A stretch of DNA of 18,361 nucleotides. Origin: Candidatus Micrarchaeota archaeon (GTDB lineage: Archaea; Micrarchaeota; Micrarchaeia; Anstonellales; Bilamarchaeaceae). Both the position numbers and the translations under genes were made by a program. Shown here one piece after another: positions 13,534 to 18,092 of the stretch. Location: assembly GCA_040754495.1 (NCBI GenBank), contig JBFMCO010000044.1, positions 1-18,361 of the forward strand, read 5' to 3'. Below the pieces are notes generated by a model that was given only the letters and a program-made list of their open reading frames with translations, had not been told where the DNA came from and did no database searches. Within the stretch, counting starts at the first letter, position 1, and each line of letters starts with the position of its first letter.

Positions 13534-13597
13534 GTTATAAATTGTTCATTCCTTTTTTTATTTATCAAAGCCACACTATTTTGTGAGCCAGTTGTTG

Positions 13598-13702
13598 ATG
13601 GCCACGATATAGCCGAACGGCGGTGTCAAGGTCGGCGTTCCGACCTTGAGCATGCTCGCGAACGAATCGTCGTTCGCGACACCGTTCGTCTATCTCGGCC
13701 AT
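13598..13702. other. Highly structured three-way-junction element immediately upstream of tRNA-His
   Basis: Imperfect terminal inverted arms (13598-13625 with 13680-13702) enclose two perfect 10-bp hairpins, TCAAGGTCGG-cgtt-CCGACCTTGA (13626-13649) and TCGCGAACGA-atcg-TCGTTCGCGA (13656-13679), separated by GCATGC. Confidence 0.8.
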
Positions 13703-13721
13703 GCTCACTTGCGTTCGCATG

Positions 13722-13792
13722 GCCACGATGGCGTAATGGTAGCGTGAGAGGCTGTGGCCCTCTAGGCCCGTGTTCGATTCACGGTCGTGGCC
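13722..13792 (+). tRNA. trnH: tRNA-His (GTG), intronless, CCA not encoded, genomic G at -1 (13721)
   Basis: Acceptor GCCACGA/TCGTGGC with discriminator C; D-arm GCGT-AATGGTA-GCGT; anticodon arm AGAGG-CTGTGGC-CCTCT; T-arm CCGTG-TTCGATT-CACGG. Confidence 0.95.
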
Positions 13793-13949
13793 CTTATATT
13801 CAAGTTCGAGTCCCGGGCATACGCGGAAACACAAACCGCGACAACTCCGGGGCTTTGCGCCGAGGCCCTTGCTTTGGCCGGATTCGCATCTCGCAAACAT
13901 GCAACATCTTGCATGAAAAAACAAAAAGACTGGAAGCGAGGTGTTGGGT

Positions 13950-15155
13950 ATGAATCCGGCGAAGTACGACATACATAGCATATCAAGGCGGCTGAAAACT
14001 GCCTTGAAGCTTATCGATGGGGATAGCAATCTCATCCCAGAGAACAAGAAGCTGATTCTTGACTTTGACAAGTATATCTTGAGCCTGGGCCTTAAACCAG
14101 AAAGGCGCTACAAGTACCTCCACCAGCTCAGGTGGCTGTCAAAGATGCTGGGAAAGCGGTTCGCAGATGCCACCAAGGAGGACATGATTCGAATCGTCGG
14201 AGGGGTCGAGAAGGAGAATATAACCGAATGGAGCAAGGTTGACCGGAAAGTAGCGATAAAGCGGTTTTACAAATGGTTCAAATGCAACGACGACTCTTAT
14301 CCCGATGAAGTCCGATGGTTCAGATGCCGGATAAAGAATGACCGTTGCATGTTGCCCGAGCAGCTCCTGAACGAAGAGGATGTCAAAAAGCTCTCCGACG
14401 CCGCCATCCAGCCTAGGGACAAGGCGCTAATCCAGGTTCTTTACGAATCCGGCTGCCGAATCTCTGAGATATTGACAATCCAGATAAAGAACGTCAGCTT
14501 CGACGGGGCCGGGGCGCTTCTCAGGGTAACGGGGAAGACCGGAGACCGACGCGTAAGGATAGTTGCATCAGTCCCAGCCTTAGCCGCCTGGCTTGAGCGC
14601 CATCCTTACAAAGACGAGCAGGACGCCTACGTTTGGCTCAGATACCTCCATAGAAACGCGAAAGACACCTATCCGCTGGGCTATAACTCGGTTCGCCATC
14701 TCCTTATCCGGCTCGCCTCGGACGCTGGCGTAAAAAAGCGCGTCAATCCCCACCTTTTCAGGCATTCCCGCGCTACCTCCCTCGCTAACCGGCTAACTGA
14801 GGCCCAAATGAAAGAGTTTTTCGGCTGGGTTCAAGGCTCGGACATGGCCGGGGTGTATGTCCACCTTAGCGGGAGGGACGTTGACGACGCAATCCTGAAA
14901 ACCTACGGGAAAAAAGCGCCGGAAAAGACTGAGCAGCCTAAGCCAAACGGTTTCGTCTGTGAGAGTTGCAACACGAGCAATATCGCTGGCTCAAAATTCT
15001 GCAACAATTGCGGGAAGGCCTTTGGAAATGAGCTGTGGGTCGAAAAAGTAGCCCCTCCCAAAAGGCAGAGCAATTTCATGGGCCAGTTGATGCAAGACCC
15101 GGACTTCCGCGACCTGATGCTCAAGAAGATGGCCGAGGCCATAACAAACGAATGA
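13950..15155 (+). CDS. Tyrosine recombinase/integrase with C-terminal zinc ribbon, 401 aa
   Basis: ESGCRISE (R), GKTG (K), HLFRHS (HxxR), FGW (W at the His/Trp position) and VYVH (catalytic Y); CESC...FCNNCG. SD GAGGTG at 13938-13943. Confidence 0.93.
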   Translation: MNPAKYDIHSISRRLKTALKLIDGDSNLIPENKKLILDFDKYILSLGLKPERRYKYLHQLRWLSKMLGKRFADATKEDMIRIVGGVEKENITEWSKVDRKVAIKRFYKWFKCNDDSYPDEVRWFRCRIKNDRCMLPEQLLNEEDVKKLSDAAIQPRDKALIQVLYESGCRISEILTIQIKNVSFDGAGALLRVTGKTGDRRVRIVASVPALAAWLERHPYKDEQDAYVWLRYLHRNAKDTYPLGYNSVRHLLIRLASDAGVKKRVNPHLFRHSRATSLANRLTEAQMKEFFGWVQGSDMAGVYVHLSGRDVDDAILKTYGKKAPEKTEQPKPNGFVCESCNTSNIAGSKFCNNCGKAFGNELWVEKVAPPKRQSNFMGQLMQDPDFRDLMLKKMAEAITNE

Positions 15156-15163
15156 GGTGAAAA

Positions 15164-16321
15164 ATGATGATATACAACCCGTTTACGCCGAAATCTGGGA
15201 TAGAGCCGCGTTTCTTCATGGGACGCGAGAAAGAGGTCGAGTTCTTCAAGAAGGCCTTGAAGGACACCGAAGCAGGACGGCCTAGCCATTTCATTGTTAT
15301 CGGAGGCTGGGGGTCTGGGAAGACTAGCCTTCTTAGGGAGTTCAAGAAGATTGCCCAGCAAGAAGGCTCGGTATGCTCTTTTGTCTCCATGAGAGGGTTT
15401 GAAGGCCGCGACACCCTACGTGATAGCATAGAATACCTGGTAGGCGAGGTCGCCATACGCCTTCCCCTCGATGTAAGCAAATTGACCAAATTCACGAAAG
15501 AGCTGAACTCGGTAGGGGTAAGCATTGCGGGAACCGGATTCCAGTTTTCGAAAGACATAATCCGGGGCGACCCTCAGACTTTTTTCTATTCGAATATGCT
15601 GAACCTTTGGTCAGACCTCAAGAACGAGACCAAAGTAGTTGTTGTCCTGATTGACGACGTTCAGAATCTAAATTCAGTTTCAGTTGCCATGAGCGTCATA
15701 AGGAACACTCTGGCAGACGAGAAGATAGTAAAAGAGACTAAATTCCTCTTTGTTCTCGCATCAACGCCGGACGGCTGGAAACCGTTCTTGCAGAGAGACC
15801 ATCCCATAGGGCGGTATTTCACGCCGAGAATGAAGCTAACAAATCTCAGCGAAGCGGAGACGACAAAACTGATAGAGACCTACTTGAAAGGCTCTGGCGT
15901 CAAATTCTCCCAAGAGGTCAAGAAAAAGGTGTTTGCGTACACGCGAGGCCATCTCTATGAAACTCAGGTCTTGTGCAATCACCTTTTTGAGAACCAGCTC
16001 AAGGGAGAAGTTAAAGGAGATGCTTTTGAACCAGCCCTCATAACGACCCTTGAGACGCTAGGGGAGGAGATTTTTGATAATCTTTATGATTCCGCAAGCG
16101 AAAGAGAGAAACGAGTTCTCGGAATTGTCGCAATCTTAGGTGAAAACACCCACCTAAACGGGATAACAAAAGAAGCAAAAGAAAGGCACCAAATTTCATA
16201 CGATGCCGTTTGTGTCAGCCTTGAAAGGTTGGTGAATAAGGGAATTATCAATAAAGCCCACCGGTCTGTTTATACAATTGAGGATACGCTATTCAGAACT
16301 TATATCGTTAAAGTGAGGTAA
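15164..16321 (+). CDS. P-loop ATPase of the archaeal ATPase/AAA_16 type with probable C-terminal winged helix
   Basis: YNPF...FMGREKE, Walker A GGWGSGKTS, Walker B VVLIDDVQ; C-terminal SLERLVNKGII...YTIED..F. SD GAGGTGA at 15154-15160; alternative ATG at 15167. Confidence 0.85.
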   Translation: MMIYNPFTPKSGIEPRFFMGREKEVEFFKKALKDTEAGRPSHFIVIGGWGSGKTSLLREFKKIAQQEGSVCSFVSMRGFEGRDTLRDSIEYLVGEVAIRLPLDVSKLTKFTKELNSVGVSIAGTGFQFSKDIIRGDPQTFFYSNMLNLWSDLKNETKVVVVLIDDVQNLNSVSVAMSVIRNTLADEKIVKETKFLFVLASTPDGWKPFLQRDHPIGRYFTPRMKLTNLSEAETTKLIETYLKGSGVKFSQEVKKKVFAYTRGHLYETQVLCNHLFENQLKGEVKGDAFEPALITTLETLGEEIFDNLYDSASEREKRVLGIVAILGENTHLNGITKEAKERHQISYDAVCVSLERLVNKGIINKAHRSVYTIEDTLFRTYIVKVR

Positions 16322-16323
16322 GT

Positions 16324-16366
16324 TATCAAAACTATCAATTTTTCAACTTTTTTGATAGTTCTGATA
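16324..16366. repeat. 15-bp inverted repeat (14/15) with a 13-nt T-rich spacer between convergent genes; candidate bidirectional terminator or protein-binding site
   Basis: TATCAAAACTATCAA (16324-16338) and TTGATAGTTCTGATA (16352-16366). Confidence 0.65.
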
Positions 16367-16379
16367 GTCGAGGCTGACT

Positions 16380-18023
16380 CTATTCAAACAATCTTTCTAA
16401 GTCGTACTTCAGATGTTTTGGCACGGCATCTTTCATGTCATCATAGCTTGAGCGTACCCTGAAATAATCTCGTTCCCCGTAAGGTATTTGGCTGTATTCG
16501 GATTTATCGAATTTTTGATATGCGATATCAAAAAGTTTTCTCACTGGTTCTTCATCGAATTCAAAGAAATTCTCCCGTAATTTCTCGCCAATATCATGCA
16601 TCTTGAGAGAATTCGTAATGTCCGGGGTATCGTCGTAAATTAGCCTGAGTACATGGAAAGTTGCATACTTATGGAATCTCTGGCGCTTTTTCCCTCGATA
16701 ATTCTTACCGATATAAGAAACAAGTCTCCAAACCAGGTAGGGTAGAAGGTAGTCGATAGCCGTTTTATTTTCTTTGAATACATCGTTGAAGTGAGACGTG
16801 AACAAATCATCTTCATTTGCTTGAGCCGAATGTGGGGCTTTCACTATCGCGGTGTTTGCCCTTAAAAGCTCTATATTCTTAATGCATTCAAGACTAGCGA
16901 TTCTCCTAGATTTACCCCGTTCTTGTTTATACTGTCCCTCCTTTCTCTCAAAATAATACCCCAAATCTTCTAATTTTCTCTGGAGGCGCACTTGAAGAGG
17001 GTGGTTTGACTTTAAGATTCTCTCGTCAACAGGAGTTTGTCTGTTATTGGCCTCGATTATGGTGTCTATAAAATTCTGGTTTATCAATTCGTCTCCAATC
17101 TCAATAATTTTGGCAAAAATCAACGCATCCTGAACAATGTTTGGTGCTAATTCCCCAATTGTGCTAACAGTCTGACAACCGTTAATTATCTGAGGATTTT
17201 TTAAGATAATTTTGCTTGCATTTTTAGTTGCTTTCTCGGATAATATCGTAACGCCGTTATTGAAGTACCAAAAGTTTTTGGGTTCTTTATTTAATGTTAA
17301 TTTCATTGCTGTATTTGCTTTTTTTGAAGTGCCATAGAAAATCCTGACATTTCTTGAGAAAAGTTTTTCTTTCCATTTTAAGTATGCCTTTCTTAGAACC
17401 TCAGCACGGATATTGACTATATAAGACTTAGGCACTCCTGGCCCCTCAACAATATTCTCAAAATCCAATTCCACCTCCCCTAGTTCGGGAGTATGTCCAT
17501 GACGCCATTCTTCGTATTTTCTTTCGATTTCTCTTGAACTGATTAGCTCTAGTCTCATGTCAGAAGGCAGATAAATCTCATAATGGGGGTTCATTCTATG
17601 CGTAGTAATAAAGAAAAACTTCAACGTATACCCCTGTTCCTTGATTAAAAGTAATGCTTTGTCAAGTTTTTCTCTTAATGAGGTGTGAATATAGTCTCTA
17701 ATTTTATAGAAGTCCTCTTTTCCAGAAAGATACTCGTATATCTTGGATGTTTTGGTTAATTCGTCTTTATCAAACGGAGAAGACCCTATCTCTTTTGTAA
17801 ATTTGCTTTGAATAATTTTTACGTTTTTTTGAGTATAATCAATTACTACTGCATCGCTCCCAGCGTCTTTAGGCCTATCGGTAATACATTCCCATATCTC
17901 GGAATCGGGTAAGTCCTCACTGGCCTTTAGATACCAAAATAAGAAGGCCCTGTAGTCTTTAACTTTAAATTTGGAAACGATATCCTCTATCTCTTGTAAA
18001 AATAAGTCTTTCCAGATAGCCAT
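16380..18023 (-). CDS. AIPR-family (abortive infection phage resistance) protein, 547 aa
   Basis: NVRIFYG, EPKNFWYFNNGVTI, PQIINGCQT, NNRQTPV and YFERK motifs; N-terminal DAGSDAV...IIQSKF resembles a PD-(D/E)xK-like segment. ATG 18023 lies about 23 bp from the TATTTAAATA palindrome (18042-18051). Confidence 0.88.
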   Translation of the reverse strand: MAIWKDLFLQEIEDIVSKFKVKDYRAFLFWYLKASEDLPDSEIWECITDRPKDAGSDAVVIDYTQKNVKIIQSKFTKEIGSSPFDKDELTKTSKIYEYLSGKEDFYKIRDYIHTSLREKLDKALLLIKEQGYTLKFFFITTHRMNPHYEIYLPSDMRLELISSREIERKYEEWRHGHTPELGEVELDFENIVEGPGVPKSYIVNIRAEVLRKAYLKWKEKLFSRNVRIFYGTSKKANTAMKLTLNKEPKNFWYFNNGVTILSEKATKNASKIILKNPQIINGCQTVSTIGELAPNIVQDALIFAKIIEIGDELINQNFIDTIIEANNRQTPVDERILKSNHPLQVRLQRKLEDLGYYFERKEGQYKQERGKSRRIASLECIKNIELLRANTAIVKAPHSAQANEDDLFTSHFNDVFKENKTAIDYLLPYLVWRLVSYIGKNYRGKKRQRFHKYATFHVLRLIYDDTPDITNSLKMHDIGEKLRENFFEFDEEPVRKLFDIAYQKFDKSEYSQIPYGERDYFRVRSSYDDMKDAVPKHLKYDLERLFE

Positions 18024-18092
18024 AATCAAGATTCTCTCTTATATTTAAATACTTTTTTTGTTTGTTTGATGATGGCATATAGCGTGTTTCTA

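Follow-up and report, generated by a model that had tools for sequence, protein, structure and literature searches.

What is the structured DNA that precedes the tRNA-His gene of the Micrarchaeota (DPANN) genome G000, and does it belong to the tRNA or to something that has landed in front of it? The question comes from a sequence-only reading of the window, which is the whole 18.4-kb contig of this MAG (1.63 Mb, 80% complete, GC 59.5%). That reading noticed that the 11 nucleotides at the tRNA 5' end are repeated upstream, described the DNA between the copies as a 105-nt three-way junction, and offered three explanations: (a) a folded pre-tRNA leader acting as a decoy or switch for 5' processing, (b) a 121-bp mini-element inserted with target duplication and possibly mobilised by the adjacent integrase, or (c) an independent, co-transcribed ncRNA. 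We compared the locus across related genomes (G-numbers denote the genomes compared, G000 being the window's own; L-numbers denote extracted loci and C-numbers the contigs of G000). The structured DNA before tRNA-His is a composite, in which a REP-like repeat sits inside an older leader hairpin that copies the tRNA 5' end (Table 1).

Table 1. Coordinates of the tRNA-His locus and its surroundings in the window.
Feature	Position	Strand	Remarks
TATA-like box TTATAAAT	13535..13542	+	Same box and downstream leader start in G022, G054 and G011
Leader motif GCCACAC	13570..13576	+	GCACAGC in relatives; recurs in most leaders of the genus, in two otherwise unlike types
U, upstream copy of tRNA-His -3 to +8 (candidate decoy 5' acceptor strand)	13598..13608	+	Exact repeat
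Leader hairpin H, 5' arm up to the insertion point in its loop	13609..13623	+	Colinear with relatives, core removed
Core: REP-like head-to-head dimer, 58 nt	13624..13681		Five copies in G000; absent at the same site in relatives
Core, TGTC end	13624..13627		
Core, first hairpin	13628..13647		
Core, GAGCATGCTC	13648..13657		10-nt palindrome between the two hairpins
Core, second hairpin	13658..13677		
Core, GACA end	13678..13681		
Leader hairpin H, 3' arm	13682..13693	+	From the fold and the core-removed alignment
X', complementary to both U and the tRNA 5' strand	13692..13702	+	A4.C mismatch; two mismatches in G000
Tail between X' and tRNA	13703..13718	+	Conserved in G010, G054, G041 and G048; related in G125 and G134
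T5, second 11-mer copy	13719..13729	+	Leader -3 and -2, G-1 and tRNA nt 1-8
tRNA-His(GTG)	13721..13792	+	ARAGORN (13722-13792/3) and Rfam RF00005, 61 bits
Tyrosine-recombinase integrase	13941..15155	+	Pfam PF00589, E 1.9e-19; context, outside the element
STAND/KAP-type AAA ATPase	15164..16321		Island gene
AIPR abortive-infection protein	16380..18029	-	Island gene

The repeat on which the earlier reading was built is real. The 11-mer ATGGCCACGAT matches exactly at its two sites (U and T5) and at no third site in the window, against 0.01 matches expected from shuffles, and 0 of 200 shuffles contained it twice. Its second copy does span positions -3 to +8 of tRNA-His, as had been claimed. In this gene G-1 is encoded (13721), C73 is position 13792, and the CCA end is not encoded. 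G000 has a full-length match to RNase P RNA (71 bits, E 5e-20, under the gathering score), and a search of this 80% complete genome for Thg1 found none. With an RNase P RNA in the genome and no Thg1 found, cleavage by RNase P must leave the encoded G-1 in place.

The structural claims held up in most respects. The RNA fold of 13583-13729 has an energy of -75.1 kcal/mol, against a mean of -49.9 kcal/mol for dinucleotide shuffles (z = -6.4). The two perfect hairpins are there, with stems of 8 bp that reach 10 bp once the flanking TC/GA is counted, and the pairing of 13697-13704 with 13717-13724, proposed as an alternative, is already the minimum free energy (MFE) pairing. There is indeed no TATA sequence right before the tRNA, the nearest TATA-like box lying upstream of the whole element. 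The Rfam covariance models, searched at the gathering score and at E values up to 10, returned the tRNA as their sole match and no known family for the element. What did not survive is the three-way junction as a single unit: the structure is strong, but it consists of a 58-nt repeat nested in the apical loop of an older hairpin.

The inner layer, hereafter the core, is the part that recurs. G000 holds five copies, four of them on other contigs. The core pattern is found in 19 of the 40 genomes of the genus, with 0-6 copies per genome, and in 29 of 176 genomes of the order, every one of them in family f1, where it is spread over 10 genera; the 77 genomes from 11 other families of the order have none. 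A control search with the reversed pattern gave 0 matches in the same 176 genomes. Across GTDB, 40 of 49 matches are Micrarchaeota, and the remaining nine are bacterial matches without the hairpins, consistent with chance since roughly 17 chance matches are estimated from the pattern and the database size. A scan of viral contigs gave no match.

Among 35 distinct copies of the core, 98.9% of cells are paired. In 15 of the 16 pairs that vary, both sides change, and covariation scores 0.53 (0.16 after shuffling). G.U pairs are as rare as mismatches, and the pairing is almost purely Watson-Crick. In its modal form the core has stems of 8 bp, loops of 4 nt and GAG as a 3-nt tail, between TGTC and GACA ends that are invariant in all copies by construction of the search pattern. 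With CGNN in the loop of the left hairpin and NNCG in that of the right, the core is two-fold symmetric as DNA, a dyad symmetry that is not expected for a strand-specific RNA.

These features bear directly on explanation (c), in which the block, co-transcribed with the tRNA, would be a structured ncRNA gene of its own or else a riboswitch aptamer formed around a four-way junction. The strong fold and the co-varying hairpins are what such an RNA would show; however, the element has no Rfam match even at E 10, its conserved positions are dyad-symmetric as DNA, it has no conserved unpaired nucleotides, and G.U pairs are rare. Moreover, relatives have the same leader without the core, and core copies occur in unrelated contexts and inside larger repeats. 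We give an independent RNA next to no credence.

The absence from relatives also bears on how the core arrived. No core is present in the same leader of G021, G011, G010, G054 and G041, and the G000 leader without it is colinear with those of all five at 79-85% identity, in an alignment made with the core taken out. The insertion point lies within the tetraloop of a hairpin and has no target duplication. In a second filled/empty pair, G016 against G022, 58 nt are likewise inserted without duplication. Other core copies also lie in or beside small hairpins, and hairpin 2 of the core resembles the leader hairpin that hosts it. Together, the core is probably a selfish REP-like insertion and a passenger in the tRNA-His leader.

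The closest parallel in anatomy is with bacterial REPs tagged with CGTC or TGTC, whose head-to-head dimers have stems of 8 bp, loops of 4 nt and tails of 3 nt and often lie inside small palindromes (PMC3733652). Their definition admits stems of 8-9 bp and loops of 4-5 nt, with a short unpaired tail (PMC3733652). These elements have no dedicated transposase, and their CGTC tag is often TGTC, with CCTC as a further variant; the family CGTC-1 of Di Nocera et al. (2013) takes in Neisseria dRS3 and Rickettsia RPE-6 (PMC3733652). The core shares with CGTC-1 head-to-head dimers a terminal tetranucleotide tag, the placing of the tags on the outside, and the stem, loop and tail lengths; it also shares heterodimers with unlike stems, insertion in small palindromes and the lack of a dedicated transposase (PMC3733652). 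Indeed, it has the tag, the stem/loop/tail design and a dispersed, intergenic, multi-copy distribution that varies between related genomes. It differs in its archaeal host, the paper describing bacteria only, and in a GAG tail where the consensus is CCA (PMC3733652). It is also unlike CGTC-1 REPs in that its partners are joined by a fixed 4-nt spacer, which yields the invariant 10-nt palindrome, and its copy number (1-6 per carrier genome) is very low for a REP family. We would therefore class the core by its anatomy as an archaeal variant of the tagged REP dimer, its units being too short and variable for a test of homology. REPIN/BIME elements, associated with RAYT Y1 HUH transposases, are similar as inverted pairs of short hairpin repeats dispersed in intergenic DNA; unlike them, the core has no GTAG tag, and its halves fold separately without pairing with each other.

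Two candidate classes of mobile DNA were considered and rejected. A Y1 transposase does not appear to be the mobiliser: PF01797 is absent from G000 (80% complete), and its occurrence within the genus, in 9 of 40 genomes, does not follow repeat content. The 58-nt core is not a MITE, the target-site duplication being missing in both filled/empty comparisons. Separately, G003 carries five identical core copies (L035, L042, L050, L054 and L072), all at contig ends, whose common flanks measure about 52 nt to one side and 47 nt or more to the other; there, judging by these flanks, the core appears to be part of a larger, recently amplified repeat that breaks the five contigs, such as a MITE or an IS end. 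In G000, one copy lies about 90 nt 3' of an intron-containing tRNA-Arg, past its T-run (L002 229-550, contig C24), and the L032 copy also stands behind a tRNA 3' end.

With the core set aside, an outer layer remains that is a leader of tRNA-His in the relatives as well. All relatives in the genus have a TATA box 60-200 nt upstream of tRNA-His. In G000 the box TTATAAAT is probably the promoter of the tRNA-His transcript, which would give a leader of about 155 nt; it is from this conserved box only that we infer the transcription start and the co-transcription of leader and tRNA. Near the start of the predicted leader is its most conserved motif (13570-13576), which contains CACA, the complement of tRNA-His anticodon-loop nucleotides 33-36 (His codon CAC), and which commonly falls in a hairpin loop some 10-35 nt from the predicted transcript start.

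The outer module has a fixed order: U, a short linker, a 7-8-bp hairpin, a linker, X', the tail and the tRNA. We found 17 modules in 15 genomes of three genera, 13 of these genomes belonging to the genus and two to other genera of the family; G047 and G048 each have two modules in tandem. Tails are of two types, A, as in G000, and B, with an extra tail hairpin. Between species, hairpins and linkers show almost complete divergence, the changes compensating one another, yet 11 of the 17 modules have a U that matches the local tRNA 5' end exactly. U equals T5 across four acceptor variants (CACGAT, CATGAT, CACAAT and CACGGT), of which type A modules show three and type B modules all four. X' follows suit, tracking acceptor positions 5, 6 and 7 in G021, G010, G012, G006 and G005 (A6 faces T in G010 and G012, for example, and U5 faces A in G021 and G006), although the rps17-region species tree is too poorly resolved at depth to count these as independent co-changes. 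At the level of sequence, the tracking points to direct pairing of module strands with tRNA strands. A helix-recognising protein is an unlikely cause, because recognition of a tRNA-His-like helix needs no tracking of species-specific pairs.

The module is private to this gene and is not essential to it. G000 has no further copy, so that a genome-wide search for copies of the element gave a divided result, the core being repeated and the outer module single. None of the other detectable tRNAs of G000 has an upstream copy of its own 5' end (a weak test, as ARAGORN, with and without intron search, detected just 7-17 tRNAs, most G000 tRNAs having long introns). About half of the readable tRNA-His loci in the genus are without the module, sisters of carriers included, and the module is therefore dispensable. 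Comparison of relatives, proposed at the outset as a check, thus yielded the module-free loci in the carrier/non-carrier sisters G041/G046, G044/G022, G047/G051 and G005/G018, which differ by exactly one repeat period. Such a difference fits either insertion with duplication or slippage loss between direct repeats. Being flanked by an 11-nt direct repeat, the module should be easily lost by slippage, which would explain its patchy distribution.

This pattern bears on explanation (b). In its strongest form the whole block would be selfish DNA, either an insertion with an 11-bp target duplication or a product of slippage and template switching, without any RNA role; U, X' and T5 would be alike through recent origin, re-insertion, cassette exchange or templated correction, and RNase P would simply discard the leader. 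The one-period difference between sisters (G005 against G018, G044 against G022) and the dispensability of the module in half of the genus are in keeping with this, as are stems that are perfectly Watson-Crick throughout, which is typical of DNA-level repeats, and templated mutation between inverted repeats could in principle hold U, X' and T5 in step. A further parallel is the rps17 locus of G000, where a 16-nt direct repeat surrounds a core-bearing hairpin that is missing from about 20 relatives. However, the outer module has no second copy in G000, and X' is complementary to the target, so that it cannot be a generic transposon end. The modules of three genera have tails and architecture in common, and U equals T5 in spite of nearly complete divergence of the hairpins and linkers. 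Finally, the A4.C mismatch of X' is kept in 9 of 14 tabulated modules; homogenising correction would erase it, and its conservation, hard to square with simple homogenisation of inverted repeats, argues against that process. We consider purely selfish DNA rather unlikely for the block as a whole. Of the proposed 121-bp mini-element, presence and absence by one repeat period stands, but the unit that is repeated measures only 58 nt and made no duplication.

The rps17 locus deserves description in its own right (L003 1484-1605, contig C19, compared with L102-L121). Its 16-nt repeat is the ribosome-binding site plus start codon, and the block between the repeats consists of the core-bearing hairpin and a partial complement. 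The rps17 gene of relatives has a TATA box in front of it and, about 170 nt long, a non-coding leader that is structured and conserved; in another genus rpl10 is preceded by a homologous composite. A 28-codon ORF through the rps17 core copy was judged to be chance. The decoy-hairpin-anti-real layout at rps17 looks like a recent insertion, and it hints at a mechanism of origin rather than a function. Our confidence that the tRNA-His leader has a function is moderate, mainly because the rps17 layout may show how such insertions arise.

The integrase directly downstream of tRNA-His could suggest another origin for the repeats. It is the first gene of a low-GC island 3' of the tRNA (window 13941-18029), at which GC drops from about 0.60 to 0.35-0.50 and which is probably an integrated defence island; the contig ends before any second att site could show. 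In G011 (L022), the 3' acceptor strand of tRNA-His is of the CATGA type and the 5' strand is CACGA, resulting in a C5.A68 mismatch, and the matching original 3' end is displaced about 20 nt downstream. It has the look of a scar, left when an integrative element replaced the 3' end of the tRNA.

Could the direct repeats before the tRNA then be attachment-site scars of elements mobilised by the neighbouring integrase? The position of the integrase and its island, the replaced and displaced 3' end in G011, and the tandem modules in G047 and G048 could all be taken that way, and a short direct repeat of a tRNA end near an integrase island is reminiscent of tRNA duplications at the attachment sites of integrative elements. 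Those duplications, however, copy the 3' part of the tRNA and enclose foreign DNA of kilobase length. In the present case it is the 5' end that is repeated, on the opposite side of the gene from the island, and the repeat does not abut the integrated element; it surrounds a conserved hairpin of 50-110 nt. In the modules the intervening 50-63 nt are a conserved co-varying hairpin and not decayed element DNA, and modules are present whatever lies downstream. We found no link between the block and the island, which lies on the 3' side of the tRNA, and the suggested mobilisation by the integrase is left without support; repeats of attachment-site origin are very improbable.

A different use of the same direct repeat would be splicing. 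In this reading the block is an optional bulge-helix-bulge (BHB) intron, and an endonuclease would excise 121 nt between acceptor positions 5 and 6, leaving the same tRNA as the RNase P route. A BHB motif can be drawn from the two 11-mers, with a 4-bp GGCC:GGCC central helix, nucleotides 4-6 as 3-nt bulges and AU:AU outside. G000 also encodes splicing-endonuclease homologues, one of them a 421-aa two-domain form, many of its tRNAs have long introns with the same hairpin types, and G014, in the same genus, has a 38-nt D-loop intron in tRNA-His of like design (a direct repeat of a palindromic tetranucleotide and a flanking 4-bp helix). As structured DNA inserted towards the 5' end of a tRNA gene, the block moreover resembles the non-canonical BHB introns of archaea, including ultrasmall archaea with a broad-specificity endonuclease (PMC3239211). 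Against this, the outer helices of the drawn motif have just 2 bp, the flanks extend them in no species, and the GGCC palindrome follows from the acceptor stem itself, so that the motif may be a coincidence. In 15 of 15 genomes the downstream copy leaves an intact tRNA, which means that splicing is never required; a search for genomes with a decayed downstream copy, in which the intron would be obligate, found none. The leader block therefore differs from the introns of PMC3239211 in its 2-bp flanking helices, its always complete downstream tRNA and an excision that is not needed. An intron is improbable.

Some observations on introns in these genomes may be recorded here. The 38-nt D-loop insertion of G014 (L082) is missing in G001 and G052; its ends repeat the 5' strand of the D-stem, and it can be drawn with the GCGU:GCGC central helix of a relaxed BHB and a 4-bp inner helix, so that by its sequence it would be a recent non-canonical intron. 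Many tRNA genes of G000 have introns, which measure 76-213 nt and have a common conserved module (contigs C9, C14, C24, C28, C31, C50 and C59); 8-bp hairpins of the GAACG type occur both in these introns and in the intergenic repeats. Run without intron search, ARAGORN reports only seven G000 tRNAs.

We return to the folded leader of explanation (a), which fits the outer module best: the module is present in 15 genomes, co-varies with the acceptor stem and has two pairing states of similar predicted energy. The two states were compared with the cloverleaf arms fixed. In state 1, U pairs with X' and the acceptor stem is normal; in state 2, X' pairs with T5 and U pairs with T3, the 3' acceptor strand of the tRNA. 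State 2 is the more stable by 0.7-6.6 kcal/mol in eight of nine species, in a nearest-neighbour model that ignores tRNA tertiary structure and co-transcriptional folding, and in several species it is the unconstrained MFE. By this model the two states are near-isoenergetic, a few kcal/mol apart, and state 1 should be the first to form during transcription. The type A tail has a conserved GC at either end, which brings the X':T5 helix of the MFE structure to 13 bp. Changing in step with the tRNA 5' end across species, the outer module points to an apparently undescribed RNA pairing switch in tRNA maturation.

Such a switch could work as follows. Transcription from the TATA box at 13535 would yield the leader module (13598-13718 minus the core) joined to tRNA-His. 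As long as X' is paired with U, the tRNA would fold freely and RNase P would cut at G-1; once X' is on the real 5' strand, U would pair with the 3' acceptor strand instead. Selection for this four-strand exchange may be what holds U identical to the tRNA 5' end, and the likely effect would be to gate or time the 5' maturation and folding of tRNA-His. Into the tetraloop of this pre-existing leader hairpin the REP-like core has landed, with no target duplication.

The closest functional analogues of the proposed switch are attenuators, T-box leaders and riboswitch expression platforms. There too, one strand (here X') can take either of two identical partners, a decoy (U) and the real site; the two states are almost equal in energy, and during transcription the upstream pairing is the first to form. 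In contrast to them, the controlled site would be the 5' acceptor strand of a tRNA and its RNase P site, rather than a terminator or ribosome-binding site. The leader module has no aptamer, specifier, leader peptide or known signal, and there is no homology.

On balance we lean towards two nested layers, a tRNA-His leader with a decoy/anti-strand switch that carries a REP-like passenger. A more specific proposal, that the pre-tRNA is programmed for two states and either gates RNase P at G-1 or hands 121 nt to the splicing endonuclease via the BHB, is tentative, and we regard it as possible rather than likely.

For the inner layer, these results add DPANN archaea to the hosts of REP-type tagged palindromes, which had been described in bacteria, and they provide clean filled/empty sites at which such a repeat has landed in hairpin loops without target duplication. 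For the outer layer, a two-state pre-tRNA, if true, would be a new kind of archaeal cis control of tRNA maturation, kept in register through at least four acceptor variants. If the leader acts as RNA, it would be the first case known to us, after a literature search, of a tRNA gene with a co-evolving copy of its acceptor strand, and the complement of that copy, in the leader. It would then also offer a simple, testable system for the way in which precursor folding controls RNase P cleavage, a question that matters for this tRNA-His in particular, with its encoded G-1 in a genome where Thg1 was not found.
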